In this document: positions 3,198-30,636 of the stretch, in pieces | How positions within the stretch are numbered: the first letter of the stretch is position 1 | How the letters are laid out: the number at the start of each line of letters is the position of its first letter | Assembly (NCBI GenBank): GCA_963933925.1 | Contig: CAWVWU010000001.1 | Coordinates: 1,231-65,230 of the forward strand | Direction of reading: 5' to 3' | DNA length: 64,000 bases | Source: an uncultured Puniceicoccaceae bacterium | GTDB lineage: Bacteria > Verrucomicrobiota > Verrucomicrobiia > Opitutales > Opitutaceae | Translations under genes and position numbers: made by a program | Notes under the pieces: model-generated | Database searches by the model: none | Seen by the model: only the letters and a program-made list of their open reading frames with translations | Told to the model about the DNA's origin: nothing

Positions 3198-3220
3198 TAT
3201 CAATAAGCACAGTCTGGCCC
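3198..3220 (+). repeat. J motif copy 3
   Basis: TATCAATAAGCACAGTCTGGCCC, near-match to 7990-8013; 38 nt from the lactonase stop. Confidence 0.6.
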
Positions 3221-3257
3221 GAATGGCGCTCACTTAAGCGACTTTTCGCTTAGGAAG

Positions 3258-4370: not shown

Positions 4371-4478
4371 GATGTGACTGGATTTTGGTTGGGGTGTGAT
4401 AGGAAAGTCGAAACAAGGACTTCGATCGTATTACAATTGATTGTGGGACGTCTCTTGTCTCCGGGCCCTTTTCGTTTT

Positions 4479-4521
4479 TGTTATAACATTACGAGAGGGC
4501 TCCTTTTGCAAGTGAAGCGAG
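4479..4521 (+). repeat. J motif copy 4
   Basis: TGTTATAACATTACGAGAGGGCTCCTTTTGCAAGTGAAGCGAG, preceded by GGGCCCTTTTCGTTTT as in copies 8 and 9. Confidence 0.8.
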
Positions 4522-4578
4522 TCCCCCGATTCATGATTTAAGGAGCGAGCTTCACTCCCTAGGATTTGAGTTCGGTGA

Positions 4579-4859: not shown

Positions 4860-5942
4860 TTAGTCGAGAAGCTTTCTTTCGCGTTGAAGCTCTGCTTTGA
4901 GTTCTTCTTCGCTTGGTAGAATGGTACGGTATTTTGATGCAAAGAGTTGCTCGTTTTCTTTGAGGACAGAGTATTGCACCATGGTTTCGTCTTTATCGGC
5001 ACAAAGAATAATGCCGATCGTGGGGTTGTCGTCTTCACCGCGTTTGAGATCGTCGAACATGCGAACATACATGTCCATTTGTCCAATGTCCTGATGCTTC
5101 AGTTTTTCGGTTTTCAGGTCGAGTATTACGAAGCATTTTAGCAGGTAATTGTAGAAAACGAGATCGATATAGAAGTGGCTTGTCTCGGTGCTGATACGCA
5201 TTTGACGGGCGACAAAGGAAAAGCCACCGCCCAGCTCCAAGAGGAATTTTTGCAGATCGTTGATCAGTGCAGTTTCAAGTTCCTTTTCGTGGGTGCTCGG
5301 GTCCTCGGGGAGATTTAGAAACTCCAGAATGTACGGGTCTTTGAGGTGGGAGAGTTTCGCTGTTTTGCCTTTCGTCGAGGAATCCGAGGATTGAGTGGAG
5401 AGCAAGCGTTGGAATGACTGTGTCTTTATCTGGCGTTCCAGCTCTCTGACGCTCCAGTTGTTTTTCTTCGATTGTTCGAGGTAGTAGGTTCTAGCACTCT
5501 CGTCTTTCTCCCTCATAATGAGGCAGTTGTGACTCCAGCTCAATTCGCTAGACAGTGTGTAGCGAATTCCTTTTTCCGGGCAGCTAAGAAAGAACTGCCG
5601 CATATTTCTAAGATTCGCGAGGGAGAAGCCTTTGCCAAATTCAGTCGTTAGATTTTTAGAGAGTTCTTCGAGGGTTCGTTTGCCATAACCTGCTTTGTCT
5701 GAGCCGCCTTGCTCCTCTTTTACGATGCGTTCACCAACGCACCAATAGGCGCCTACCATCCTGGAGTTGACGGCTTGGACGGCTTGGTTACGTGCGTGAT
5801 CTAGAATCTCTCGGATTTCTGAGAAGAATTCGTTGGCATCGCTGGTTGGTGATTCTCGTTCATGATTGCTGGTGGAAAAGGTTACAGAGCTACCGAGGAA
5901 TACTTGATAGATGTAGTCGATCGCTTTGCGAGCAGTGGTCAA
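4860..5942 (-). CDS. yhcG: YhcG/DUF1016 PD-(D/E)XK nuclease
   Basis: AYWCVGERIV, LSWSH, WSVRELERQI, KDPYILEFL, FYIDLVFY, DIGQMDMYV, PTIGIILC; true start may be downstream of 5942. Confidence 0.9.
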   Translation of the reverse strand: MTTARKAIDYIYQVFLGSSVTFSTSNHERESPTSDANEFFSEIREILDHARNQAVQAVNSRMVGAYWCVGERIVKEEQGGSDKAGYGKRTLEELSKNLTTEFGKGFSLANLRNMRQFFLSCPEKGIRYTLSSELSWSHNCLIMREKDESARTYYLEQSKKNNWSVRELERQIKTQSFQRLLSTQSSDSSTKGKTAKLSHLKDPYILEFLNLPEDPSTHEKELETALINDLQKFLLELGGGFSFVARQMRISTETSHFYIDLVFYNYLLKCFVILDLKTEKLKHQDIGQMDMYVRMFDDLKRGEDDNPTIGIILCADKDETMVQYSVLKENEQLFASKYRTILPSEEELKAELQRERKLLD

Positions 5943-6055
5943 GCATTCCTTGACAACTGAATCTATCGCGGGGGCTTGTGTGAAAATGGACTAATTCTAT
6001 CGTTTGTTTCCCGCTCTCGTAAACGCACAATTCAAGGAGCGAGCTTCCCATTTGC

Positions 6056-6790: not shown

Positions 6791-6951
6791 GAGATCGGCT
6801 TCGCTTAAGCTATATTTGATTTCTTGGCTCATGTTTGTAATTGCTGATTAAGGTGTGCTTTTTTTCGAGAGGGTTATTTTCATGGCAAAGCATGAAGGTG
6901 GTTTTTGGGGGCGGATCGTGGAGAAGGGTGTTGGGGTGTTTGGGGCCTAAA

Positions 6952-6992
6952 TGTCAAACATTACGACCTGCCCGCTTTGCGAGTGGAGCGAG
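6952..6992 (+). repeat. J motif copy 5
   Basis: TGTCAAACATTACGACCTGCCCGCTTTGCGAGTGGAGCGAG, preceded by GTTTGGGGCCT; 23 nt from the rsuA stop. Confidence 0.8.
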
Positions 6993-7014
6993 CCCCCCCC
7001 CCCCGGTGTTAGGT

Positions 7015-7713
7015 TTAGGGATTTGGATTTGAGAAGGACTGCACTTCATCGTTTGTTAGAAATCGCCAGTCTCCGAGGGGGACGTCGAGTGATATCTCCC
7101 CGATTTTCTCGCGGTGCAATGAGATGACTCGATTACCGACGGCTGAGAACATGCGTTTGACCTGGTGGTATTTACCTTCGGTGATCGTTAATCTAGCTTC
7201 TTTCGGACCAAGGATTTGTAAGTTTGCTGGTAGAGTTAATTTGGATTCGCCTTGTAGTTGAAATCCACTCTTAAACCGTTCGATCAAGCCTTCCGTTAGA
7301 TCTCGAGATAGACCGACACGATACACTTTCTGACAGTTATTCGCTGGTGTGATAATATCGAATGTCCAACGACCATTGTCGGTGATCAGTACTAAACCCG
7401 TGGTATCGGCATCCAATCGCCCGGCTACATGTAATTCTGAAACCTTCTCGATCTCCAAGGAATTGAAGAGAGACGGATAGGCTCCATCGGCATTCGAGCA
7501 AATCGTGCCCGAGGGTTTGTGCATCAGAAGGTAACGGAAGCTCCGCGTTTTCAGTAATGTGCCATTGAGAGTGATCGTATTATTCTCGTGCACCTGTGCA
7601 GCCTCGTCAGTGATCGTATCACCATTGACCTTCAGTTGGCCATTGTGGATGCATTGAACCGCTTCAGACCTCGTGTATTCGGTACTTTTGCAAACAAATC
7701 TATCTAGGCGCAT
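7015..7713 (-). CDS. rsuA: 16S rRNA pseudouridine(516) synthase
   Basis: N-terminal S4 domain MRLDRF; HKPSG, AGRLDADTTGL catalytic Asp, EGKYHQVKRMF. Confidence 0.9.
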   Translation of the reverse strand: MRLDRFVCKSTEYTRSEAVQCIHNGQLKVNGDTITDEAAQVHENNTITLNGTLLKTRSFRYLLMHKPSGTICSNADGAYPSLFNSLEIEKVSELHVAGRLDADTTGLVLITDNGRWTFDIITPANNCQKVYRVGLSRDLTEGLIERFKSGFQLQGESKLTLPANLQILGPKEARLTITEGKYHQVKRMFSAVGNRVISLHREKIGEISLDVPLGDWRFLTNDEVQSFSNPNP

Positions 7714-7738
7714 GAGAAGGGTTTTTTCCTGTGGGAAT

Positions 7739-7756: not shown

Positions 7757-7820
7757 CTCTTCGATGGGCTCAGGATCTACGAGGGTGTGTTTTTTTTAAC
7801 CACGGAAGGGGTGCTGTGAA

Positions 7821-8017
7821 TTTTTTAACCGCCCATCCGCTATGCGGATTCGAGGACGCTGAGAGGGGGAGGTACTCTGATTTTGGGATCGAATCTTCAA
7901 TTTGTAATTTTCATTTACCGCTTGGTGGTGTTTTTCGGGGGCGGTGTATTGATTCGAAACTGACTCTTGAGATTGTTCCGGAGACATTATGTCAATAAAC
8001 ACAGTCTGAGCCCTTTG
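7821..8017 (+). repeat. Direct repeat B copy 1 (ends in J motif copy 6, 7990-8017)
   Basis: Ungapped match to 8529-8725 (offset 708); I count 7 mismatches over the first 178 nt. Confidence 0.95.
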
Positions 8018-8435: not shown

Positions 8436-8528
8436 GGGAGAGTCGAAAAATGGACCTTCGATGTTTGAGTCCTTTCTTGTCAGGCGGTGACTTTGCTCAG
8501 TACAGGTCAGGATCTGCGAGTTGTGCTA

Positions 8529-8725
8529 TTTTTTAACCGCCCATCCGCTATGCGGATTCGAGGACGCTGAGAGGGGGAGGTACTTTGATTTTGGGATCGA
8601 ATCTTCAATTTGTAATTTTCAATTACCGCTTGGTGGTATTTTACGGGGGCGGTGTATTGATTCGAAACTGACTCTTGAGACTGTTCCGGAGATATCATGT
8701 CAATAAGTACAGCTTGCCCCCTTTG
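8529..8725 (+). repeat. Direct repeat B copy 2 (ends in J motif copy 7, 8698-8738)
   Basis: Ungapped match to 7821-8017; continues CGAGTGCAGGGAG. Confidence 0.95.
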
Positions 8726-8787
8726 CGAGTGCAGGGAGCACTTTAAGCGTTACTTATGTCAATGGATCGTATGTTGGATATTTGGTG

Positions 8788-9762
8788 CTATTTGTCGCAG
8801 CATTTTTTGTATTTCTTTCCGCTACCGCAGGGGCAGGGGTCGTTGCGACCGACTTTGGGGGTGTCTCTAATGAAGGGTTGGTTGGAGGTCTCAGTAGGTG
8901 TGGAAAATGTGGGAAGGGGTTCCTCGTCGAAATTGTCCTCTTCGAGGTCTTTGTCTTCATCGAGATCGGTATCTTTGAATATTTCGTCGTAGAACTCTTT
9001 TTCTTTTTTAGCGGAGGCTTCGGTGAAGCAGTGCCAGGTTGAGAGTTCTTCGTGGGGGTGTTTTAGGAGGCGAAAAGTATTATCGGGAGAGTCTATTGGA
9101 TCCTTCTTTTGGAAGGCTTCTTCTATCTGTTCTTGGGAGTAGAAAGGCATGAAAGGGAAGCCTATTTCGTATTGGTCTTTTATGTGGGGGATGTGCTCTT
9201 CGATGAGAAAGGAGGTGGAGAGCTGTATGGCTGTGTTGCGGAGAACTTCGGGGGCGTCTTTGAGGGTGGATGTGTAGAGAGAATCTAAGTACGAAGTGAG
9301 GATGTCTCGGGAGATTTGTTTGTGGTGATGCAGGATGCCGATGGCACCGAGGGCGGCACTTCGGGAGTATTCGGTGACCCCGTCGTCGTCGACAAGAGCA
9401 TAGAGCTCTAGGGGTGAATCGAAGAAGCAGGCTGCCAGGATTTTGTCGAAGCCTTCACTTATAATGTCGTCGAATTCGTCTTCGGCTTCTTGGCTGTGGG
9501 CTATTTTCGAGAGGACGGTGCGGGCGGAGGTTTCTTTAAAGTGGCCAAGGAGATAGAAGGCGTAGAAGTGAAGCATGTAGTCGTCTTCAAATAATTCGTC
9601 GGGGTCTTCGAGTAGACTGCGTTCGAGGGCTTTGATGAGGTGGGGGATCGCTTCATCTTTACGATCGATGACGGCTTGAATATCATCTGCGGGATAGGGC
9701 CGTTTTAGGGAATAGATTTTTTGAAGGAAATCCGGGAGAGATTCGTAGAATTCTAATGGCAT
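8788..9762 (-). CDS. DUF1186-domain protein with C-terminal SEC-C motif
   Basis: [17 protein letters not shown]-terminal domain, acidic linker, [20 protein letters not shown]. Confidence 0.8.
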
Positions 9763-12606: not shown

Positions 12607-12731
12607 GGGTGTCGTGTTCTTTGAGTTCTTTGGAGAGGATTAGGCGGTAGCGGGGATCAAGGCGATAGTTTGGGGCCTTTCGTTTTTTGTTATAACATTA
12701 CGAGCTGGCTCCTTTTTGCGAGCGGACCGAG
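12607..12731 (+). repeat. Direct repeat A copy 1 (ends in J motif copy 8, 12688-12731)
   Basis: ...TTTGAGTTC.TTGGAGAGGATTAGGCGGTAGCGGGGATCAAGGCGAT.GTTTGGGGCCTTTCGTTTTT..., matches 14389-14511. Confidence 0.95.
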
Positions 12732-12814
12732 TCCCGACCTTGTTTTACCTCAAGTATTATAGCCAAGGTTTCTCGCGAACGTTCAGGGAGTTCATCTTTT
12801 GAACTGAGTGCGTA

Positions 12815-14200
12815 TTAAGCTACGGAATCCAAAGTAGAAGTGATCGCGTCTAGGTTTTTCTGGGCGGTTTTGCGGAGGTCGGAGAACAGGTGGGCTTCTG
12901 CGATGAAACGGGACCAGAATCGTTGGGCAGCTTGAGCAGCGGGGATCCAGGTTGGGAGTTCTTCGGGGCGTGGAGGGTGGACTTCGATTGGGCGAGTGGG
13001 GAGGTCGCCGGTGCGTTGAGGAGCGTACCGCATCGGTAGCATGTCGTAAATGGGACAGAGCTTGAGGGGGAGTTCTGGAGTTAGGAAGAGGCTGAGGTTC
13101 CCTAGATGTCTGTCGGAGTTGCCAATGAGGCGGCCAAAGTGGTCGAAGGTGGCTATGTGGTCGGCGTCGGTTTGGCTAAGCCAGGATTTCTGGACGAGGG
13201 TTTGAGATGAGAGTGTCCAGGATTGGTCGAGTGGCTCGCCGAGTCCAGCGAGGACGGTGCGTAGCATGAGTGTGGGGATGCGGCCGTGACGTCCTGATCG
13301 GTCGAAGCGTTCGACCTCGAGAAAGGTTCGCTGATTTGTCGGGACAAATTCTGTCAGAGGGCTGGGTAAGCCAATATTGGCAAGTTCTTCGGAAGCGATG
13401 GCTTCGGCTTTTAGGAGGTCGGCCCAACGGCGACCTGCATCGGTTTGGAGTGAGCCGGAGAATTTTACGATTACGTGGCGGAAGCGATCGTCTGAGGTAC
13501 GAATGCAGGCTGTTAATTTGGGTTGTTCTCCGCCGGCGGAAGAGTTGGGGAGGTCGTCTCCTTCAGATATGTTGTGAGCGATGAGTTCGTAGCTTCTTCT
13601 TCGGTCGGCTTCGTCAATGAATGGGGACTGACTTTTAGCTTGGAGGAAAGTGTCTATCGCTTGGCCGCCAAGGATGAAATGTCCTGGGGTATCGTTGCCG
13701 TGTGAGAGGATTGCGGTAAGGGCTTCGTCGATATTCCAGTTTTCAGGATTGGTCCCGATCCTGAGAGTTGGGCCATGGGTGTGAGCGAGCAGGCGGCCGA
13801 GGTAGCCCTGTGGTCGCATGTCGTCTAGAAACCATGGGAGGTCAGGAAATAGATGGGGGTGGTCCTCGCCGTTGAGGAGGTAGGCGTAGTCTTCATTATT
13901 CCCTTTCGGCTCAAGATAGAATTCGCCTTGATGGAGTGCATGGAGTGTCGCAGCTACCTGTGCCTGGCCGGTCTTGTCGATTTGGTAGAGGTTCCAGCTC
14001 GAGTCCTTGTCGTTGAGACGCCGTTGGAGGGCGTAGCGGGCTCGGCGTGTTCGGCCGATTCGGAGGATGTTTTTGGAGGCTCCGAGTGCTCGGGAAACGG
14101 TGGGCTGGCTAACCCCTAGCTGGCGGGCGATGTCCGATGAGGACATTGAGCCTTGGCTGGCGAGGAGGCGTTCGATGGGTATTGTGTGTTTTTGATTCAA
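12815..14200 (-). CDS. yjjJ: HipA-like kinase with N-terminal HTH (YjjJ/HipH type)
   Basis: N-terminal HTH (DIARQLGVSQPTVSRAL), PWFLDDMRPQGYLGR, SSAGGEQPK, VKFS, ERFDR, GNSDRHLGN, PIYDMLPM. Confidence 0.85.
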   Translation of the reverse strand: MNQKHTIPIERLLASQGSMSSSDIARQLGVSQPTVSRALGASKNILRIGRTRRARYALQRRLNDKDSSWNLYQIDKTGQAQVAATLHALHQGEFYLEPKGNNEDYAYLLNGEDHPHLFPDLPWFLDDMRPQGYLGRLLAHTHGPTLRIGTNPENWNIDEALTAILSHGNDTPGHFILGGQAIDTFLQAKSQSPFIDEADRRRSYELIAHNISEGDDLPNSSAGGEQPKLTACIRTSDDRFRHVIVKFSGSLQTDAGRRWADLLKAEAIASEELANIGLPSPLTEFVPTNQRTFLEVERFDRSGRHGRIPTLMLRTVLAGLGEPLDQSWTLSSQTLVQKSWLSQTDADHIATFDHFGRLIGNSDRHLGNLSLFLTPELPLKLCPIYDMLPMRYAPQRTGDLPTRPIEVHPPRPEELPTWIPAAQAAQRFWSRFIAEAHLFSDLRKTAQKNLDAITSTLDSVA

Positions 14201-14388
14201 AATGAATAAAACTATGAATAGTTTAAGTCACTTATAGTCAATGATAATAGAGCTATATATGTATGTTATATGAATAGATTATTGAAGAAATGATATTTCC
14301 TCCCTTTGGAACATAAAAAATGTGCAAACGTACATTTTGAAACAAGACATTCGACGATCCTCTGACTGCCCGTGTAAGGGCTGGTACG

Positions 14389-14511
14389 GGGTGTAGTGCT
14401 CTTTGAGTTCCTTGGAGAGGATTAGGCGGTAGCGGGGATCAAGGCGATCGTTTGGGGCCTTTCGTTTTTGTTAAAACATTACGACCCGACCCCTTTTGCG
14501 AGCGGAGCGAG
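14389..14511 (+). repeat. Direct repeat A copy 2 (ends in J motif copy 9, 14469-14511)
   Basis: Matches 12607-12731. Confidence 0.95.
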
Positions 14512-14597
14512 CCTCTGCGTCGAGAGTTCAGACTCGTGCCAGGATTTGAGGGGCTGTTGCCGGTCGGTTGCCATCTATCAAGATTTAAGAGCTGTCC

Positions 14598-21281: not shown

Positions 21282-21830
21282 CTATTTCCAGGGGCGGGTG
21301 CTGTCGTTGGTGATGGGGCGTGTGCTTTGTTGAGAGAGAGTTTGGATAAAGGCGTCTAGCTCGCCAGATATGATACCGTCTTTGGGGATCATTATGGAGT
21401 TGGTGTTCTCTAGGTTAACGAGGTAAAGACTTTTTATTTCGGTAATGGATTGGATTGACGCGAATTGGGCGGTGCCGCCGAGGTTGAGTTCTTGGGAATT
21501 AAGGCCAGTCGCGTCGAGGGAGAGAGTGGCTTCGACGCCGATGTTGGAGCCTTCCATTTTGTGTATTTGCTTTTTGAAGTGTTGGGTGAAGCGCCAATGG
21601 GTGTACTTCTTGTTGAAGATAAACCAGAGGCCGCAGTAGAAGAGCAAGCAGGCGGACATGGTGGTTTCGCCGCGGATAAAGGCGAAGAATCCGAGGAGTG
21701 CACCGAGCAGAATCGGGAGTAGAAGAGTGCGAAAGCGTTGTTGGCAATGACTTGGAATTAGGAGCGTGGTGTACATCTGAAACTCGAGGTAGTCGGTTTC
21801 GGTAAGACTGTATCGAATTGAGGAAGTCAT
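21282..21830 (-). CDS. YcxB-family membrane protein
   Basis: YSLTETDYLEFQMY, two TM helices, EIKSLYLVNLENTNSIMIPK. Confidence 0.7.
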   Translation of the reverse strand: MTSSIRYSLTETDYLEFQMYTTLLIPSHCQQRFRTLLLPILLGALLGFFAFIRGETTMSACLLFYCGLWFIFNKKYTHWRFTQHFKKQIHKMEGSNIGVEATLSLDATGLNSQELNLGGTAQFASIQSITEIKSLYLVNLENTNSIMIPKDGIISGELDAFIQTLSQQSTRPITNDSTRPWK

Positions 21831-22172
21831 GAATGGGAGAAATAGGAAATTCGTTTCGAGTATGGGGCGTGGGGTCGTTGTACCTGTATTTTTATAACCT
21901 TTTGGGGTGGGTTGATTCTAATCCGATGATCAACCATGCACAATTCGCTTTCTTTATAACTCGGGCTGTTGAGCTTGAAAACGTGCCATGCTTTCGGAGT
22001 TCGTCGAATGACGATTGGAATTTGTTAAGGGGAATTGATCTGGGTATTCACTTCAAGGTGGATACCTGTTTTTTTTGTGGCGTTGGCGACGTGGTCGTCG
22101 GCGTTCTCGTGAGAGGGGCAGCCTTCGGCAGGACCTCTAACTAGCAGAGCTAGTTAGAAGTCTTGGCGAAAC

Positions 22173-22529
22173 TGGTGGAGGTGGCGGGAATTGAACCCGC
22201 GTCCCTCGAGCCTTTGCGCAAGGCGTCTACATGTTTGTCTTCGTTTTTATTCTCGCTAATACAGACGCGACGAAACCGCGCTTCTGTATTCGCTAGCCCA
22301 CTGAGGAAGTACGATTTAGGCGCAGCAGATAGCCACCTAAACTATGCTCGTTGTCGTCGCTCCACTCTACCTAACGAGTATCAGTAGGGGAACGTAGCTG
22401 AACTAAGCAGCTAGAGGCATTTCTTCAAATGTGCCATTTAGTTTTTTTGATGGAAGATTAAAGAGGCCAACCATCATCCTCTACATGCAGCCAGACGCTC
22501 CAACAAAAGGTCGAATCCAGAACACCCCC
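22173..22529 (-). ncRNA. ssrA: tmRNA
   Basis: 5' GGGGGUGUUCUGGAUUCGAC; 3' GACGCGGGUUCAAUUCCCGCCACCUCCACCA; tag ORF 22435-22403 encodes GTFEEMPLAA*; 357 nt. Confidence 0.97.
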
Positions 22530-22555
22530 AGTAGCGAGCAGAGCTCGCGAAAGTA

Positions 22556-22583
22556 TGAATATTGAAGTGTGAATTGTGAAATT
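22556..22583 (+). repeat. TGAA-led heptamer repeat x4
   Basis: TGAATAT TGAAGTG TGAATTG TGAAATT, just 5' of tmRNA. Confidence 0.65.
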
Positions 22584-22721
22584 CAGACTTCGACTTGTTG
22601 TGAGATACCGCTTTCGCGGTAGTTTGACTTGTGGTCAAAGAACGTAAAAGAGAGATAATCGCGCGTGTTTTGGTGGAAATCAAGGTTGATTACGTGCGAG
22701 GATGTTTATTTATTTTGTGTA

Positions 22722-24209
22722 ATGGCAACTGATACTTCCCCTGATCTTCTTTCCTCTGTCGCTAATTATTTTTCTCGTGCGTGGGAGGTGGCCTCGGGGC
22801 CGTTTAGCTCTGAGAACCTCATGGTGGAGCTGGGGGCGATTGGAGGGGCGTTTGCCTTGGCGATTGTACTCTCACTGGTGTTGAGGCCGCTGTGTAATCG
22901 AATTACGGAGGCTATCGAGGAGCGGGATGACTGGATCGAAGGGATTGTTGATTGGCTGAGTGATAATTTGTTTAGGCTATTGCTGGCGTGTCTGTTGTGG
23001 TCGGCGTCGCTGGCGTTGGATTCGCATAGTGTGGGGTCGGTGGTTGTGGTTTCAGTCCCTGCGGAGTCTAGTGAAGCGGTGGTGACGGCTGCTGAAGGTG
23101 GGGCGGTGTTGGTTGAGCAGGGGCAGTCGATTCCGGGAGGGACCCGAGTTGTGGAGCGGAATTTTCTCTTGATTCGTGCGTTAGCGAGTTTGGCTACTTT
23201 GTTCTTTGTGTCGGGGGCACTGCCAACGCGAATGCTTTCGACTGCCTATTTTAAGGTATTCTTTTTTGTTTTGGCGATCGGACTTGTGTTGAATTTGGTG
23301 GGCCTTTGGGTACCGGTTCGAGACGGATTGAACGAGATTAAGCTGTTGCCAGTGAGTGAATCGACTGAGACGCGCGTTACGGTGCTGTCGTTGTTGAAGG
23401 GGATTTTGGCCATCATGTTGATGATACCTGCGTGTCGTGGGCTTTTGTCTCTTTTGGATCGTCGTGTTGAGAAGATGGACGCGGTTTCGCCTGTATTGCG
23501 TGTTCTGATTTCCAAGTTTATCTCGGTCTTAGTCATTATTTTGGCGGTGCTGTTTGGAATTAGCTCCTTGGGTGTTAATTTGTCTGCTTTGGCGGTGCTT
23601 GGTGGTGCGGTTGGTTTAGGACTAGGGTTTGGTTTTCAGAAGGTGGTTTCGAATTTGATTAGTGGGGTGATTTTGTTGACGGATCGGTCGATTAAGCCGG
23701 GCGATGTAATCGAAGTGGGTACGACCTATGGGTGGATCAATAAGTTGAGTGCTCGTTATGTGTCGGTGTTAACTCGGGATGGAACGGAGTTTTTGATACC
23801 GAACGAGACATTGATTACGGAGAAGGTGACTAATTGGTCGTTCAGTGATGATCGGGTGCGGGTGCGGGTGAAGTTTGGAGCATCGTATAATGCTGATCCG
23901 CGCGAGGTTATGGCTATGGCAGTTGAGGCGGGCAGGGCTTGTAAACGTGTTATTCCGGAGAAGGAACCAGTGTGTTGGATGCTTGGCTACGGTGATAGTT
24001 CGATAGATTTTGAGTTAAGAGTTTGGATACGTGACCCTGCAGAGGGGATTGGTAGCTTACGTAGTGAGATATTGTTACGACTTTGGGATATGTTTAAGGC
24101 GCGTGGAATTGAGATACCGTTTCCACAGCGTGATTTGCATATTCGTAGTGGGCTGCCGGCGAAAGGGGTATCTCGTGAAGAGTTTGGATCCACGAATAAA
24201 CGCCGATAG
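22722..24209 (+). CDS. mscS: MscS-family mechanosensitive channel
   Basis: GAVGLGLGFGFQKVVSNLISGVILL.DRSIKPGD, IPNE, GDSSIDFEL, IEIPFPQRDLH; ATG 22722 preferred. Confidence 0.9.
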   Translation: MATDTSPDLLSSVANYFSRAWEVASGPFSSENLMVELGAIGGAFALAIVLSLVLRPLCNRITEAIEERDDWIEGIVDWLSDNLFRLLLACLLWSASLALDSHSVGSVVVVSVPAESSEAVVTAAEGGAVLVEQGQSIPGGTRVVERNFLLIRALASLATLFFVSGALPTRMLSTAYFKVFFFVLAIGLVLNLVGLWVPVRDGLNEIKLLPVSESTETRVTVLSLLKGILAIMLMIPACRGLLSLLDRRVEKMDAVSPVLRVLISKFISVLVIILAVLFGISSLGVNLSALAVLGGAVGLGLGFGFQKVVSNLISGVILLTDRSIKPGDVIEVGTTYGWINKLSARYVSVLTRDGTEFLIPNETLITEKVTNWSFSDDRVRVRVKFGASYNADPREVMAMAVEAGRACKRVIPEKEPVCWMLGYGDSSIDFELRVWIRDPAEGIGSLRSEILLRLWDMFKARGIEIPFPQRDLHIRSGLPAKGVSREEFGSTNKRR

Positions 24210-24336
24210 ACACGGGATTTGTTGGCTTGTGTTTTTCTTGCTCACGAAGTTCACGAATATGCACGAAGACTGTGGGGGAGAATCAACACGGATATTATTG
24301 GGGCACTGTAACCTTTCCTGAATGTGGCGATGAGCC

Positions 24337-24365
24337 AAAAAAAAGACGCCCGGGTGGGCGTCTTG
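24337..24365 (-). terminator. Rho-independent terminator of mdh
   Basis: AAGACGCCC-GGGT-GGGCGTCTT hairpin with a U-run on the minus strand. Confidence 0.8.
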
Positions 24366-24395
24366 AAATGTTTGATTGGGTTGCGTCTTCTCTTA

Positions 24396-25376
24396 TTAGA
24401 GGAGGTCGCTGACCATTACCTTCTCTTCGCTGAGTTCGGCTTCGGTGGCTTTCGCTTTTTCGAGGCTGAAGTCATTGAGTTCTAGGCCTTCAACTACGGA
24501 TAGTTTTTTGCCGTCACTCTTCATTGGGTAGGAGTAGATGAGTCCCTTCTCGATGCCGTATTGACCATCTGAGCAAATGCCTACGCTGAACACATCGTCG
24601 GCTGGAGTTGGCGTAATAATTGAGCGTACAGTGTCGATTGCCGCGTTGGCAGCAGACGCAGCAGATGAGAGGCCACGTGCCTTGATGATCGCGGCACCGC
24701 GTTGTTGTACGGTTGGGATAAAGCTATCCTTGAACCATGCATCATCTCCGATGACTTCGGTGGCTGCTTTGCCGCCGATCTTTGTTTCGAAGTAATTGGG
24801 GTACATGGTTGAGGAATGGTTACCCCAGATTGCGAGATTCTTGACTTCGGTCGTGTCGACACCTGCCTTGATGGCGAGTTGTGACTTGGCGCGATTTTCG
24901 TCGAGCTTGGTCATCGCGAACCAACGATCCTTAGGAATGTCGGGTGCGTTGTTCATGGCGATCAAGCAATTGGTATTACAAGGATTGCCAACAACGAGGG
25001 TGCGGATGTCCGAAGCGGCGTTCGCTTGGATTGCCTTACCTTGGGAGGTGAAAATCTTACCGTTAATTCCTAGAAGGTCGGCACGTTCCATTCCCGCTTT
25101 GCGGGGTACGCTTCCAACAAGGAGTGCCCAGCTTGCGCTGTCGAATCCTTCGTTTACATCACAGGTTGGTACGATTCCTTTGAGGAGGGGAAATGCACAG
25201 TCTTGGAGCTCCATGACTACGCCTTCGAGGGCTTTCATGCCAGGCTCGATTTCAATCAGTCGTAATATGACTGGTTGATCGGGGCCTAGTAGTTGTCCCG
25301 ACGCAATGCGGAACAGCAGGGAATAACCAATTTGACCGGCGGCGCCGGTCACTGCAACGTGGACAGGTTGTTTCAT
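24396..25376 (-). CDS. mdh: Malate dehydrogenase
   Basis: [48 protein letters not shown]. Confidence 0.97.
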
Positions 25377-25508
25377 AGCTTTGGGAGGTTATGAGTCTTG
25401 CTTATAGAATGCGATTAAAAACTCCCCTGCTTAGGGAGTTCTTAACGTGTGCTTTTAACTTAGATAAGCTTGGGTTATAGGTATCCATCAATAACCCGAT
25501 TTTAAGGC

Positions 25509-26600
25509 TTATGCTTTGGCGAAGCGTACTTCTAGGCTTTTGTATGCTTTGGTTACGGATTCTTCGGTCGTTGCCCAATCGATACATCCGTCTGTTATAG
25601 AGACGCCGTATTTAAGATTTTCCTTGGGAGCTGGGAAAGATTGGTTGCCGGTTCCGAGGTTGCTTTCGATCATCGTACCGGTGATGGCGTTGTTGCCATC
25701 GGTGATTTGCTGGATGACCTCTTCGAAGACAGCGGGTTGGCGTTGTGGATCTTTTGAGCTGTTGGCGTGGCTGCAGTCGACCATGATTGTTGCCTTGAGG
25801 CCTGCCTTTTCGATTTCTTGCACGGCTTTATTCACGCTGGCTGCGTCGAAGTTGGGCCCGTCTTTTCCTCCACGTAGAACGACGTGGCAGTCAGGGTTAC
25901 CGTTAGTCGTTACTTCGGAGGCTTGGCCTTGGGTGTTGATGCCGAGGAAAGTCTGTTTGTGGCTTGCGGCCTTAATAGCGTTGATTGCTACGGGGAGTCC
26001 GCCATCTGTGCCGTTTTTGAAGCCTACTGGCATGGAGAGTCCTGAAGCCATTTGGCGGTGAGTCTGTGACTCAGTGGTGCGGGCTCCGATCGCGGACCAT
26101 GAAACGAGGTCTGCGATGTACTGGGGAGTGATTGGGTCGAGAAGCTCTGTCGCGGTGGGGAGTTTGAGGTCGATGACTTGGCGTAGAAAGACTCGGGCGA
26201 CCTTGAGTCCCTTGGTGATGTTGCTACTGCCGTCGAGGTCTGGATCCATGATAAGCCCCTTCCAGCCGATGGAAGTACGTGGCTTTTCGAAGTAGACGCG
26301 CATCACAAGAAGAATGCGGTCTTTTATCTTCTCGTTTAGTTCGGCGAGCTTCTTGGCGTAGTCGAGACCAGCTTCGGTGTCGTGAATGGAGCAAGGCCCT
26401 ATTACTAGAAGGAGACGTGGGTCCTCTCCGAATATGATGCGTCTGATCTCTTCGCGGCTTTGGTTGATAAACTCCGCCTGTTCTTCGGTTTTCGCGATTT
26501 CGCCCATGAGCGAATCTGGAGTAGGAAGAGCGATCGTTTCGATCACGTTTATGTCTGAGGTCTTGTTCACTGTTCCGATAGTTGGAAGAGTGTGAGACAA
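25509..26600 (-). CDS. 3-deoxy-7-phosphoheptulonate (DAHP) synthase, class I-alpha (AroF/G/H type)
   Basis: GPCSIHD, RVYFEKPRT.IGWKGL, IGARTTESQTHR, GFKNGTDG, DCSHANS, SITDGC; TTG start. Confidence 0.95.
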   Translation of the reverse strand: MSHTLPTIGTVNKTSDINVIETIALPTPDSLMGEIAKTEEQAEFINQSREEIRRIIFGEDPRLLLVIGPCSIHDTEAGLDYAKKLAELNEKIKDRILLVMRVYFEKPRTSIGWKGLIMDPDLDGSSNITKGLKVARVFLRQVIDLKLPTATELLDPITPQYIADLVSWSAIGARTTESQTHRQMASGLSMPVGFKNGTDGGLPVAINAIKAASHKQTFLGINTQGQASEVTTNGNPDCHVVLRGGKDGPNFDAASVNKAVQEIEKAGLKATIMVDCSHANSSKDPQRQPAVFEEVIQQITDGNNAITGTMIESNLGTGNQSFPAPKENLKYGVSITDGCIDWATTEESVTKAYKSLEVRFAKA

Positions 26601-26652
26601 ATTTCAAACAGGAAGTTGCACAGTTATCAGGAAATTGCTGGTATTTGGGCAG

Positions 26653-26744
26653 AAAAAAGGCGGATCGCCTACCCCTAAGCGATCCGCCACTCGTTTTCTT
26701 AGTTACCCCAAATTCTCGCTAGGCGAGAAAGTGTTAAAATTCAT
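26653..26744 (-). promoter_or_regulatory. Candidate transcription attenuator: leader peptide plus terminator upstream of DAHP synthase
   Basis: Leader ORF 26744-26703 MNFNTFSPSENLG*; terminator GGCGGATCGC-TTAGGGGTAG-GCGATCCGCC-TTTTTT (26688-26653) in the 5' region of the gene. Confidence 0.55.
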
Positions 26745-26812
26745 TGACGGCTTTAATTACGCAGGGCTTGGTCTCTGTCAATGAATTATCCAAATATTTT
26801 ATAAAAAAAGTG

Positions 26813-27748
26813 ATGAAAGAGAGTTTAGACCGATATTTTTACAAACCAAAGGGGTTACTAAGGGTATTTGGGCCTGACGCAGCGGGATTTCTGCAAGGAC
26901 AGTTTAGTAATGATCTCTCTGGAGAGGCTGGAAAGTGTGTTTATGGATATTGGTTGAATCGTAAGGGGAAGGTTTTGGCTGATAGTTTTGTTCTGAAGGA
27001 GTCTGAGGAAACGTTTTGGTTGGTGAGTTATGAGTGTTTATCAGCTGTGATCGCAGAGCGGCTGGATTCCTATATTATAATGGACGATGTCGAAGTGGAG
27101 ATTTTGTCTGAGGCATATGGAGCGTTTTCGGTTTGGGGTGAGGATTTGGAATCTGCTGCTTTGCCTAATGAAGTTGATGTGCCGGCACAGGGTGAGTTTT
27201 CGAGTTTCGAAGGAGGGTTTTGTTTTCGAGGCGTTCGTGGAGGAGGTTTTCCTTCGATTGAAATCGTTCAGATTGCTGATTCTGGGGCGAGTGTCCTTGA
27301 TGTTTTGGCACGGGATCCAGGTATTCATGATTTGACTTCGATGGATGTAGATAATTTTTCGATAGTAGAGGATCGTCCAATTCCTCCACGTGCGTTTGGC
27401 GAGACTGATTTGCCGCAAGAAACGTCAATGGGAATTGATGCGATTTCATATAATAAGGGCTGTTATTTGGGGCAGGAAGTTATGGCTCGAATAAAGTCGA
27501 TGGGGCGAGTTCGTCGTCAGCTCATTCCCGCACAGTTGAATGGGCTTATTTCTGTTGGGACAGAATCCCGTGAGGTGAAAAGCTCGGCTGGAATAAAAGT
27601 CGGTGATTTCAGGGCCTTGACGAATGATGGGGTGGATACATATGGCTTTGTGATGCTTAAGTCTGGCCAGAGATTGGAGGACTGTCATCTAGAAGGACTC
27701 TCAGGGAATTTTGTGTCTTTAAGAGAGTATGGGGCTGAGGACATATAA
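26813..27748 (+). CDS. ygfZ: YgfZ/GcvT-like folate-binding protein
   Basis: DAAGFLQGQFSND, LNRKGKVLAD, ISYNKGCYLGQEVMAR; ATG 26813 preferred. Confidence 0.9.
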   Translation: MKESLDRYFYKPKGLLRVFGPDAAGFLQGQFSNDLSGEAGKCVYGYWLNRKGKVLADSFVLKESEETFWLVSYECLSAVIAERLDSYIIMDDVEVEILSEAYGAFSVWGEDLESAALPNEVDVPAQGEFSSFEGGFCFRGVRGGGFPSIEIVQIADSGASVLDVLARDPGIHDLTSMDVDNFSIVEDRPIPPRAFGETDLPQETSMGIDAISYNKGCYLGQEVMARIKSMGRVRRQLIPAQLNGLISVGTESREVKSSAGIKVGDFRALTNDGVDTYGFVMLKSGQRLEDCHLEGLSGNFVSLREYGAEDI

Positions 27749-27975
27749 TGACGCGGGAAGAGGAAATTGAGAGATTGGCTCAGGTGTTTGTGAATTTGGG
27801 TACGCAGAGCGAGCAGGGTGTTGTGATGGCAAAGCAGATGCTGAAGCGCGCAGATCAGCTGTCTGAAGAGCGCTCGATCCCTAGGACGGAGGCTCTCGAT
27901 CACCTCATGAAGGTGTTAATTGCGGGGCGAAAAGGGGAGTCATACCCCTCAAATGGCGATTTTAGGGACTCTTAG
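27748..27975 (+). CDS. Hypothetical helical protein (75 aa)
   Basis: ATG shares its A with the ygfZ stop (TAATG); MAKQMLKRADQLSEER. Confidence 0.7.
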   Translation: MTREEEIERLAQVFVNLGTQSEQGVVMAKQMLKRADQLSEERSIPRTEALDHLMKVLIAGRKGESYPSNGDFRDS

Positions 27976-28102
27976 GGCAAAAAATAGCATTTTTTTTGGG
28001 TCTTCGAATACAATTCCATTGACGCCCAACGTGTAGGGGATTCGCTAGAGACTGTTTTGTACATCTTCGTACCCCTTACTTAATTAATTAATATCTTAAT
28101 AT

Positions 28103-28417
28103 ATGAATAAGTCCGAATTAGTTGCTGAAATCCAAAAGAACCTAGGTGATTGCTCAAAAGCTGAAGCTGAAAAGGCATTGGCCGCGGTTACCAGCTCAAT
28201 CAAAACCGCTGTTAAAAAGGCAGGAAAAGAAGTTAAGCTTCGTGATCCTGATTCTAAGGCAGCTGTTGCTATCCAGATCATCGGGTTTGGTACGTTCTCC
28301 GTTACTAAGCGTGCTGCTCGTTCTGGAATCAACCCACTCACTAAGGCTCCTTTGAAGATCAAGGCGAGCAAGGCAGTTAAGTTCAAAGCGGGTGCAGGTC
28401 TTAAGGATCAGCTCTAA
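28103..28417 (+). CDS. hup: HU-family DNA-binding protein with an insertion
   Basis: MNKSELVAEI, IGFGTFSV.KRAARSGINP.T, IKASKAVKFKAGAGLK. Confidence 0.93.
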   Translation: MNKSELVAEIQKNLGDCSKAEAEKALAAVTSSIKTAVKKAGKEVKLRDPDSKAAVAIQIIGFGTFSVTKRAARSGINPLTKAPLKIKASKAVKFKAGAGLKDQL

Positions 28418-28445
28418 GCTTTATTCTTTGTAATAATTTTTTGGA

Positions 28446-28477
28446 AACCCACGGTGTTATACCGTGGGTTTTTTTTT
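28446..28477 (+). terminator. Rho-independent terminator of HU
   Basis: AACCCACGGT-GTTAT-ACCGTGGGTT followed by a T-run. Confidence 0.9.
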
Positions 28478-28803
28478 GTGTATCGATGGGGTCTTATGCT
28501 TGGATTTGTGTCAAATCGACGAATACGGAAGACTTGAATCCGAGGGGGCTATTGCTGTTTGAATTTTCGACAGAGAGAAGGCTGCTGATCGTTTGTTTAA
28601 AACGTGAATGGATGGCTATAAAGTCGGATCTTTAAATGAGTGAAATTGGACTTTTTTGAAACGGCACTTGCGATGCATTTTGAGCTACGAAGGGTCAGCT
28701 AAAGACGCGACGTTTCGCGAAAGTAGCTTTCTTCATTGTGGTGATGTGCGTGTGGAGAAAAACGGTGGGGGCTAGTGCTCTTTCTTGAAAGAGGGTGTTC
28801 ATT

Positions 28804-29700
28804 CTAGGTGAGGAGTTCAGCGACAAGTTCGAAGTACTTGTCTACTTCGGTTTCTAGAAAAAGGAGATAGACGAGTGCACCAGCGGCTAGCATGGGTCCG
28901 AAGGGAGTTCTTACACCAACTATCTTGTTTTCGTTTTCCTCGGTTTTTGGCTTCTTTTTAAGAAGCAGTTTAAAGGGGAGATAGACCATTAAGGCTATGG
29001 TGCCGATTGCTGCTCCTCCGAATAGAGCAAATACGGCTCCTTGCCAGCCGGCGAAAGCACCGATTGCTCCGAGGAGTTTGACATCTCCGAAGCCCATAGC
29101 CTCCTTTCTCAGGATGACTTCAGCTGTGAGGGCGAGCCATAGGATGAGCCCGGACCCGATGAAGAGTCCCGTGATGGCGTCGGTGAATGAGCGAATGCAG
29201 GCGACAGAGAAAGGTTCGACTGAGTGGCCATGTAACGCGGGGATGAATGCTGAGAGTAAAATTCCGAAAAATGCGGTGCCGATTGAGAATCGGTCGGGGA
29301 TTTCCATGGTATCCCAATCGATGAAGCTGGCACAGACCATAAGAGATATGAAGAACATGATGCAGGCTGCTTTGGCTGCGGGGAGTTCAATCCATGCGAA
29401 TAGGAATAAGGCTCCGGTGAGGGCTTCAACCATGGGGTAGCGGATGGAGTAGGGCTGCTTGCAGCAGCGTGCTCGGCCGCGAAGGATAAACCAACTGAGA
29501 ATGGGGATGTTGTCGTAAGCGGCTATCTTCTTGCCACAGGAGCAGGTCGAGCCCGGGTGAACTATCGATTTTTTAGCAGGTATCCTGTAGATGCATACAT
29601 TGAGGAAGCTACCAACGATCGCTCCAAATATGAAGATCATGACTTGGAAGAACCAGGGGAACTCGGCGTTAACCGTTTGAAAGTCTTGTATTAGGGACAT
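28804..29700 (-). CDS. pilD: Prepilin peptidase / N-methyltransferase
   Basis: GSFLNVCIYRIP, DNIPILSWFILRGRARCC, IDWD, MGFGDVKL, PFGPMLA. Confidence 0.92.
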   Translation of the reverse strand: MSLIQDFQTVNAEFPWFFQVMIFIFGAIVGSFLNVCIYRIPAKKSIVHPGSTCSCGKKIAAYDNIPILSWFILRGRARCCKQPYSIRYPMVEALTGALFLFAWIELPAAKAACIMFFISLMVCASFIDWDTMEIPDRFSIGTAFFGILLSAFIPALHGHSVEPFSVACIRSFTDAITGLFIGSGLILWLALTAEVILRKEAMGFGDVKLLGAIGAFAGWQGAVFALFGGAAIGTIALMVYLPFKLLLKKKPKTEENENKIVGVRTPFGPMLAAGALVYLLFLETEVDKYFELVAELLT

Positions 29701-29715
29701 CTAATTGGGGAGGGG

Positions 29716-30636
29716 TTAGCTGATGGTGCTGCGTGCAGCGTCGAGCATGGTTTCGGTGCGTGGTTCGACGCCGGTCCAGTGACTGAGGGACTTGGCACCT
29801 TGGAAGGCGAGCATTGTGAGTCCGTTTGCGGCATTGCCGCCTTGGTTTGTTACGGTCTCCATTAGTTTTGTCATTGGGGGATTGTAGACCATGTCGTAGA
29901 GGTCGATGGCAGACGAAAGTGCTCCGGCGTTCAGGGGGAGGGGGTCGTCGGGCTTCATGCCGAGGGACGTCGCGTTGATCATGAGAGCGTGACTCGGGAT
30001 CTGGAATTCTGGATCAGTGGGGGCTGAGCCGCTGATTTTTACGTGTTCTGCTTGGGGGAGACATTTGATCGATTTGATGAGAGCGGAGAGTCGATCTTGG
30101 TTACGGTTTATGATGTGGAGGCGGGAGCAATTGCTTTGCAGGCATTGCACTGCGGCGGCTCTAGCGGCGCCCCCTGCTCCGAGAAGGACGACGGAGCTGC
30201 CGGAAATTGTCCGGCCAAGTTCTTGTTTTATACCGGCCTCAAGGCCATAGCCGTCTGTATTGAATCCAATGTATCCATCGCCTGAGAGCATTAATGTGTT
30301 GATGGCACCGATTGGTTGTGCGGCAGGGTCGATGGATTTTACGCCGTCGATGGCGATGGTTTTGTGTGGAACCGTGAGATTTATACCATGAAAGCCTTTT
30401 TTTCTAAAGAGAGGGAGACTTGTTAAGAGTTTTTCTGGTGGGACTTCGAAGCGGAAGTAGCGCCAAGTCTTGAAGCGTGGGTCGGCTTCGCTTAGTTCCG
30501 CGAGCACTGTATTGTGCATGATCGGACTGATGGAATGTCGGATCGGGTAGCCGAGGACAGCTAGGCTGGTGCCGCTGAAATTCCATTGATTGAGGTCGTC
30601 GAGAGTGTAAGTGGCTTCAGAGTCGTAGTTCTCCAT
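29716..30636 (-). CDS. aroE: Shikimate dehydrogenase
   Basis: GYPIRHSISP.MHN, GINLTVPHK, NTDGYG, GAGGAARA, INATSLG, DMVYNP. Confidence 0.92.
   Translation of the reverse strand: MENYDSEATYTLDDLNQWNFSGTSLAVLGYPIRHSISPIMHNTVLAELSEADPRFKTWRYFRFEVPPEKLLTSLPLFRKKGFHGINLTVPHKTIAIDGVKSIDPAAQPIGAINTLMLSGDGYIGFNTDGYGLEAGIKQELGRTISGSSVVLLGAGGAARAAAVQCLQSNCSRLHIINRNQDRLSALIKSIKCLPQAEHVKISGSAPTDPEFQIPSHALMINATSLGMKPDDPLPLNAGALSSAIDLYDMVYNPPMTKLMETVTNQGGNAANGLTMLAFQGAKSLSHWTGVEPRTETMLDAARSTIS

Follow-up and report, generated by a model that had tools for sequence, protein, structure and literature searches.

Several types of small genomic unit come close to the locus described here. In cis-mobilizable elements (CIMEs) of the ICESt1/St3 type, cargo lies between direct att-like repeats and has no recombination genes of its own; the units occupy a hot spot by an RNA gene and accrete in tandem at the same site. 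Repetitive extragenic palindromes and bacterial interspersed mosaic elements (REP/BIME), and the IS200/IS605-derived palindrome-associated transposable elements (PATEs), are short repeats, each restricted to a lineage, that occupy 3' intergenic spacers and lack both target duplications and terminal inverted repeats. HipH/YjjJ kinases, in turn, are poorly understood single-gene toxins. Genes of the HipH clade are monocistronic and encode a helix-turn-helix (HTH) fused in place of the HipB partner (PMC8262856), and how they are regulated is still unknown in the literature (PMC8262856; PMC9948734). Here, we analyzed a 64,000-nucleotide stretch (the window) of an uncultured Puniceicoccaceae bacterium (assembly GCA_963933925.1, contig CAWVWU010000001.1, positions 1,231 to 65,230), in which a hipH (yjjJ) gene lies between two direct repeats, each made of a part that we call J and an extension, ext. 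We tentatively favor the view that hipH and its promoter form a recombination-bounded module, which entered a defense island at J+ext, left a copy of the repeat on each side and could be lost in the same way, probably through homologous or microhomology-driven recombination. What is new is the repeat-bounded layout within an integrase-less array linked to ssrA, a variant of known cassette-like and CIME-like arrangements; hipH itself adds a member to a known family.

The hipH product gave a full-length match to the NCBIfam equivalog NF007297 (residues 13-458 aligned to profile positions 10-440 of 446) and also matched HipA_C (E = 1.7e-19). Several Pfam models recognized a winged HTH at about residues 8-45 of the N-terminus, among which HTH_5 scored 22.8 bits against a cut-off of 22 and the others remained below their cut-offs. 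The kinase motifs are kept, namely the Gly-rich loop AGGEQPK (222-228), the catalytic GNSDRHLGN (360-368) and the Mg-binding IYDMLP (384-389), and they line up with their counterparts in Legionella HipT(Lp) (8ezr), with the catalytic pattern D-x-H-x-x-N. We found no HipB or HipS partner beside the gene and no other family-matching open reading frame (ORF) between the repeats; the neighbors are a helicase gene and abiEi/abiEii. Judged from these matches, the product is a member of the YjjJ/HipH kinase family, Hip clade X, in agreement with the first-pass annotation of this DNA, which had described a YjjJ/HipA-like kinase lacking a HipB partner. The window protein resembles E. coli K-12 HipH/YjjJ in being encoded monocistronically, in joining an N-terminal HTH to a HipA-type kinase core and in having no adjacent HipB or HipS (PMC8262856, PMC9948734). 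Unlike the E. coli gene, however, it comes from a marine member of the Verrucomicrobiota, sits in an ssrA-linked defense island and is bracketed by the 125-nt repeats, and its function is a prediction. Its closest homologues, from Pelagicoccus and other Verrucomicrobiota, are 70% identical, and identity to the yjjJ copies on E. coli plasmids is about 36%. Homologues are uncommon on plasmids (45 of 72,556 records) and none was found in the phage collection. Neither the GC content nor the GC at third codon positions (GC3) of hipH sets it apart from the neighboring genes.

The two repeats around hipH, of 125 and 123 nt, were aligned by a repeat search and self-BLAST over 125 columns with 90.4% identity (E = 7e-41), and their start-to-start spacing is 1782 nt (Table 1). 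A 30-mer taken from the repeat occurred in the 64 kb at these two sites only, against an expectation of 0 (100 shuffles). Each repeat is a composite of a 44-nt J part at its high-coordinate end and the 81-nt ext. The J parts, J_b (12688-12731) and J_a (14469-14511), agree at 37 of 44 positions and differ by two 1-nt indels, and the extensions, ext_b (12607-12687) and ext_a (14389-14468), agree at 76 of 81 positions, which amounts to 84% identity for J and 94% for ext. The longest perfectly identical run shared by the repeats is 37 nt, and ext is confined to these two sites within the 64 kb. Enclosed between the repeats are 188 nt of upstream DNA, the 461-codon minus-strand ORF and an 83-nt downstream spacer. 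The observation in the first-pass annotation of near-identical repeats about 1.78 kb apart, enclosing only yjjJ and its upstream region, was therefore confirmed. Moreover, similarity between the repeats breaks off sharply at both borders, and because homology stops at both repeat ends they do not belong to a larger segmental duplication, one part of the outcome that would have counted against the annotation.

Table 1. Coordinates of hipH, its flanking repeats, the J copies and ssrA in the window (R1, covariance model of J).
Feature	Coordinates	Strand	Description
hipH (yjjJ)	12815..14200	-	461 codons, TTG start; NF007297, 425.6 bits (cut-off 401)
hipH upstream region	14201..14388	-	candidate promoter/operator; 32% GC; about 90 nt conserved in four other lineages
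Upstream repeat copy, J_a + ext_a	14389..14511	-	starts 86 nt past the stop of the gene for the 1767-aa helicase; R1 match 14444-14522, 86.4 bits
Spacer from hipH stop to J_b	12732..12814	-	83 nt, unique to the locus
Downstream repeat copy, J_b + ext_b	12607..12731	-	R1 match 12662-12742, 81.2 bits
J copy 3	4455..4532	-	between yhcG and the lactonase gene; 81.0 bits
J copy 4	6934..7003	-	22 nt past the rsuA-like stop; adjoins a 12-nt G run; 68.6 bits
J copy 5	8680..8752	-	49 nt past the DUF1186/SEC-C stop; heads a 198-nt repeat also found after the rhuM fragment; 49.1 bits
J right half joined to truncated rhuM	7990..8017	-	joined at a shared CAAAG; not significant under R1 alone; part of the 198-nt repeat 7820-8017
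J left-half remnant GCTCGCAAAG	5924..5933	-	in the ycxB-yhcG spacer; followed by unrelated sequence
ssrA (tmRNA gene)	22173..22529	-	153.6 bits; the variable island begins past its 3' end

It is very improbable that this layout is an artefact of metagenome assembly, with hipH wrongly threaded between two copies of a repeat. The underlying metagenomes are of low depth (2-4 in sequencing run X1) and contigs tend to break at J, as does contig L030 at 7004 and an X1 contig at 14518, but the same gene order is given by two further records, and the 12 differences between the two repeat copies show that they are not a single collapsed repeat. In particular, the order helicase-hipH-abiEi recurs in an independent ENA assembly, and a Logan contig from run X1 is colinear with 14139-14518 with 0 mismatches, leading from inside hipH through the whole upstream repeat. 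Since the independent assembly and the colinear contig agree, an assembly artefact is unlikely.

We found that the DNA upstream of hipH is conserved together with the gene. It carries three TATTCAT boxes (14270-14276, 14214-14220 and 14202-14208) and a TTGACT hexamer resembling a -35 element (14236-14241). Three TATTCA(T) boxes and TTGACT are kept upstream of hipH in five lineages, the window and the loci L003, L006, L035 and L036, whose proteins are about 70% identical. In the latter four, conservation is limited to the hipH ORF and about 90 nt upstream, beyond which everything differs, and the genes lie in diverse settings that include bacteriophage exclusion (BREX) genes, a hipBA pair and an arsenic-resistance cluster, or elsewhere. 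Because only the ORF and these ~90 nt stay together across lineages, hipH and its promoter constitute a transferable unit. The ~90-nt segment is probably an operator bound by HipH's own HTH, and its three conserved boxes give a model of self-regulation by the fused HTH. Promoter and terminator scans returned counts that were not above those of shuffles. Between ext_a and the operator there is a 23-codon ORF, MSCFKMYVCTFFMFQREEISFLQ (14278-14349, minus strand), which is not conserved in the homologues and may be due to chance.

The 1.78-kb unit would thus be a complete monocistronic toxin-kinase module with its own promoter and three TATTCAT boxes, and one of several single-gene or few-gene units in a variable accessory and defense island directly 3' of ssrA. 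Its most likely history would be of the Campbell type, in which a J+ext that was already resident recombined with incoming DNA, a circle or segment that bore hipH and a J+ext of its own, so that one copy came to lie on either side. With 90% identity and a 37-nt identical run, the repeats would also permit the loss of hipH as a 1.78-kb circle. Recombination within J/ext would be homologous or driven by microhomology, rather than carried out by a dedicated cassette integrase. We infer both the route of arrival and the loss through the repeats, and we regard hipH as a plausible recombination-bounded module that may be mobile.

J belongs to a small family of repeats. Using a covariance model made from the long J copies (R1), which was scanned over the window and the sister loci, we identified five significant copies, all of them on the gene strand. 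They fall within 10 kb of the island, with 0 in the other 42 kb of the window and 0 in the sister loci, and four of the five start 22-86 nt past a stop codon. Three weaker J-like motifs proposed earlier, at 627, 2001 and 3198, had E > 10 with R1 and were discarded. A second repeat pair, 7820-8017 and 8528-8725, is 93% identical over 198 nt, is 708 nt apart and brackets a rhuM fragment in the same geometry as at hipH, which supports the earlier proposal that hipH and RhuM are two examples of one architecture. On the rhuM side, the repeated unit consists of a J right half and its own 170-nt extension, which recurs 708 nt upstream.

J was also observed as a breakpoint at two junctions other than those of hipH. 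At the first, a truncated rhuM (rhuM') gives way to a J right half. The second became apparent from a relative in a coral-reef run (X2), which is 95-97% identical to the window over its hipH contigs and in which hipH and its upstream region are present and helicase contigs are not. A 170-nt contig of this run joins the leader downstream of ycxB (29 of 30 nt identical to 5937-5966) to a full J, the right half of which is of the type of J_a, the copy preceding hipH (window 14456-14503, 2 mismatches in 48), whereas the window has only GCTCGCAAAG at that place. In the X2 relative, hipH may occupy a different position in the array. Taken together, the rhuM' junction and the comparison of the ycxB/yhcG spacer with X2 narrow the switch to a segment of at most 9 nt around GCAAAG. 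Such a position fits a preferred crossover, or homologous or microhomology events resolved where J is best conserved.

The first of these possibilities leads to a dedicated site-specific cassette system, in which J would be the site of a recombinase encoded elsewhere and crossover would occur in a GCAAAG(G) core. Cassettes would then start with the right half of J and end with its left half, and hipH would be functionally like an integron cassette or CIME with a different site. We consider such a system unlikely. Two independent junctions do map to the same J segment of at most 9 nt, but GCAAA is also the best-conserved part of J, where homologous or microhomology events would resolve too. The copies are co-oriented and lie past stop codons, and the hipH and rhuM' units each start with a J right half and an extension, which is found again where the next unit begins; yet just five copies are significant, and none of the other genome, metagenome and viral collections scanned contained J. 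That the two hipH repeats are 84% identical in J and 94% identical in ext agrees with exchange at such a site, and a sister lineage uses the 3' side of ssrA for integrase-driven insertion, but the 64 kb encodes no recombinase among its ORFs of at least 100 aa, and J has no conserved secondary structure, only a 10-nt palindrome that lies away from the breakpoints. The most far-reaching form of this explanation, in which J is the site of an undescribed, integron-independent system that shuffles toxin and defense genes beside ssrA by crossover at GCAAAG with a recombinase encoded elsewhere, and hipH is a live cassette found after the helicase gene here and after ycxB in the X2 relative, is improbable in our estimation. 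If J were a true recombination site, single-gene defense arrays would be assembled without the attC/IntI chemistry of integrons.

The hipH unit is not an integron cassette. Integron cassettes and clusters of attC sites lacking integron-integrases (CALIN) are like the window array in that they consist of co-oriented units, mostly of one gene, with a related short site after each unit and with toxin-antitoxin and defense genes as common cargo, and a CALIN likewise has no adjacent integrase. In contrast to attC, J has no R''/L''-L'/R' boxes, significant hairpin or covariation, and its copies share sequence and not structure. A search for the attC boxes R'' (RYYYAAC) and R' (GTTRRRY) at the repeat borders found none, and IntI, which a CALIN does not require at the head of the array, was absent as well, as there was no Phage_integrase match in the ORFs of at least 100 aa in the 64 kb. 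A further difference from a promoterless integron cassette is that 269 nt separate the J core from the hipH start codon and include the conserved promoter/operator.

Structure predictions agreed with this distinction. The two hipH repeats gave folds no more stable than those of shuffled sequence, with z of -0.64 and -0.37 for the gene strand and of +0.61 and -0.09 for the opposite one, and the alifold consensus was -1.6 kcal/mol with 0 compensatory pairs, showing no covariation; on these data we rejected J as an attC or other structured element. Only J copy 3 folded better than shuffles (z = -3.4), owing to an extra inverted fragment of J left, and the other four J regions gave z of -0.1 to -0.6. 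Apart from the 10-nt palindrome, J has no inverted-arm core. A search of the window against Rfam returned the tmRNA only. Two further candidates for J were set aside. As a copy of the ssrA 3' end (...ggttcaattcccgccacctccacca), neither J nor ext shows any similarity, and as a dif/Xer site, a comparison by eye found that the left arm only resembles dif and that the XerD arm is absent.

The setting of hipH is a variable island beside ssrA, the gene for transfer-messenger RNA (tmRNA). From past the ssrA 3' end down to the left end of the window, about 21.4 kb are taken up by a run of minus-strand accessory genes, which encode a YcxB-like protein, an unknown 337-aa protein, the 1767-aa DEAD+UvrD helicase, HipH, AbiEi/AbiEii, a DUF1186/SEC-C protein, the RhuM fragment, an RsuA-like protein, a second YcxB-like protein, YhcG (PDC-S02), a lactonase, MarR and DoxX. 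A strain present in three seawater runs (X3-X5) is more than 99% identical to the window over 21442-30000 and has no contigs on 1-21441, save short multi-copy repeats and one exact 189-nt piece (8600-8788), which is J copy 5 with its flank and ends at the DUF1186 stop. Because this strain is without 1-21441, the island of at least 21 kb varies between strains as a block. The MscS and tmRNA neighbors show that the lineage is without a close sequenced relative, as the next MscS is 71% identical. In the lineage with that MscS, the nearest sister (L032, 8037-9789), the DNA immediately 3' of ssrA encodes a tyrosine integrase of 432 aa, beyond which come excisionase-like, RNase H and terminase-small genes and another integrase; together they form a conventional ssrA-integrated element, in contrast to the array of the window, which has no integrase. 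Given the integrase and prophage-like genes at this place in L032, the 3' side of ssrA is a classical insertion hot spot. The window island is like CIMEs in being integrase-less, in its direct repeats, in its RNA-gene hot spot and in its tandem array; it differs from them in that its repeats are not copies of the ssrA 3' end, its units are smaller (0.7-4 kb) and no helper integrase is known.

Several results weigh against a hipH module bounded by recombination. The first-pass annotation had proposed an excisable single-gene cassette and had named an empty allele in relatives as a check. Neither a hipH circle junction nor a single-repeat empty site was present in any run, a weak negative because it comes from Logan contigs with a depth of 2-4x at the locus. 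We found no integrase, resolvase or transposase domain, Phage_integrase included, in ORFs of at least 100 aa in the 64 kb. The sole documented presence/absence polymorphism is that of the whole island of at least 21 kb and not of hipH alone. The hipH homologues at 70% identity (L003, L006, L035 and L036) have no J, ext or comparable flanking repeats. In exact-pattern scans of GTDB representative genomes, JGI metagenome contigs and IMG/VR, J and ext gave chance matches only, and because they were not found in these collections there is no second context for J+ext-hipH. The junction evidence from X2 comes from contigs of 170-250 nt at depth 2. Lastly, since the J halves are only 84% identical, the hipH event is old or the two copies are of separate origin. 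Some evidence does point to one part of the cassette proposal, J as a recombination junction, namely rhuM' at the J right half and the J remnant compared with the full J of X2; excision of hipH is the part that was not seen. One apparent joint in X2, 12650->14414, was considered as an empty site and rejected, because the contig carries an ext that is partly duplicated internally and is joined to the region downstream.

Some of these observations suit a different explanation, in which the 125-nt J+ext is a small repeated or mobile intergenic element, such as a REP, a miniature inverted-repeat transposable element (MITE) or a PATE-like element, that was placed on both sides of a resident hipH, independently or by gene conversion. 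The gene would then come and go only as part of larger island segments, and the only proven polymorphism does span the whole island. We regard this explanation as an equal rival to the cassette idea, although taken by itself it is rather doubtful. Both copies are sharply bordered at the same points, which is what a discrete 125-nt element would show, but a search for terminal inverted repeats, a target duplication and a significant hairpin found none. Other short repeat families are plentiful in the island and in the window, whereas ext is found nowhere else in the 64 kb and J is limited to the island in one orientation. The partial tandem duplication inside ext in the X2 relative suggests that ext is unstable on its own. 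On the other hand, the halves of J occur apart, at junctions with truncated or different DNA, which fits a recombination site better. The L035 hipH homologue, too, is bracketed by REP-like repeats of 42-43 nt. Were J no more than a local repeat, the locus would be an ordinary part of a variable tmRNA-linked island.

A comparison with the REP/BIME and PATE families gave a similarly divided picture. J is like them in being short and lying in 3' spacers, and it has a fixed CAAAG 5' of its right half that can be compared with the target beside the left end of IS608. It is unlike them in having no strong hairpin and in its few copies, which all point one way, and neither a REP-associated tyrosine transposase (RAYT) nor TnpA was seen in the 64 kb. 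Ext was also considered as the remnant of a protein gene, with an HNH protein in mind, and rejected, as its open frame has no Pfam match and no match at E <= 0.001 among 1.84 billion proteins. The repeats of L035, at 2259-2340 and 4999-5163, are direct and 86% identical, and they enclose a response-regulator gene along with the hipH homologue, which shows that genes in repeat-rich genomes can come to be bracketed incidentally.

Other short repeat families abound in the island and elsewhere in the window, and some of them reach a depth of 12-16 where the genome is at 3-6x. One of these is represented at 3214-3250, where GCTTAAGTGAGCGCCATTCGGGCCAG forms one arm of a palindromic element that the X3 strain has in multiple copies (118-nt contig, depth 15.6), and the supposed J copy at about 3200 is largely part of this palindromic family. 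The 12-nt G run that abuts J copy 4 lies at 6995-7006, and the independent contig L030 ends in it, at window position 7004. Contigs of X1 end at the left edge of J_a (14518). Such contig ends at J suggest branching of the assembly graph.

Another island gene has a history that can be followed beyond the window. The rsuA-like gene (7036-7720) shares 87.6% nucleotide identity with genes in L037-L040, where the neighbors are unrelated (a sulfatase) and the likeness covers the ORF only, without J. Relatives of its protein are found at 78-85% identity in Verrucomicrobiota and at 66-70% in Vibrio and Photobacterium. From these comparisons, the rsuA-like gene looks like a horizontally acquired single gene, a case that fits piecemeal acquisition of single genes.

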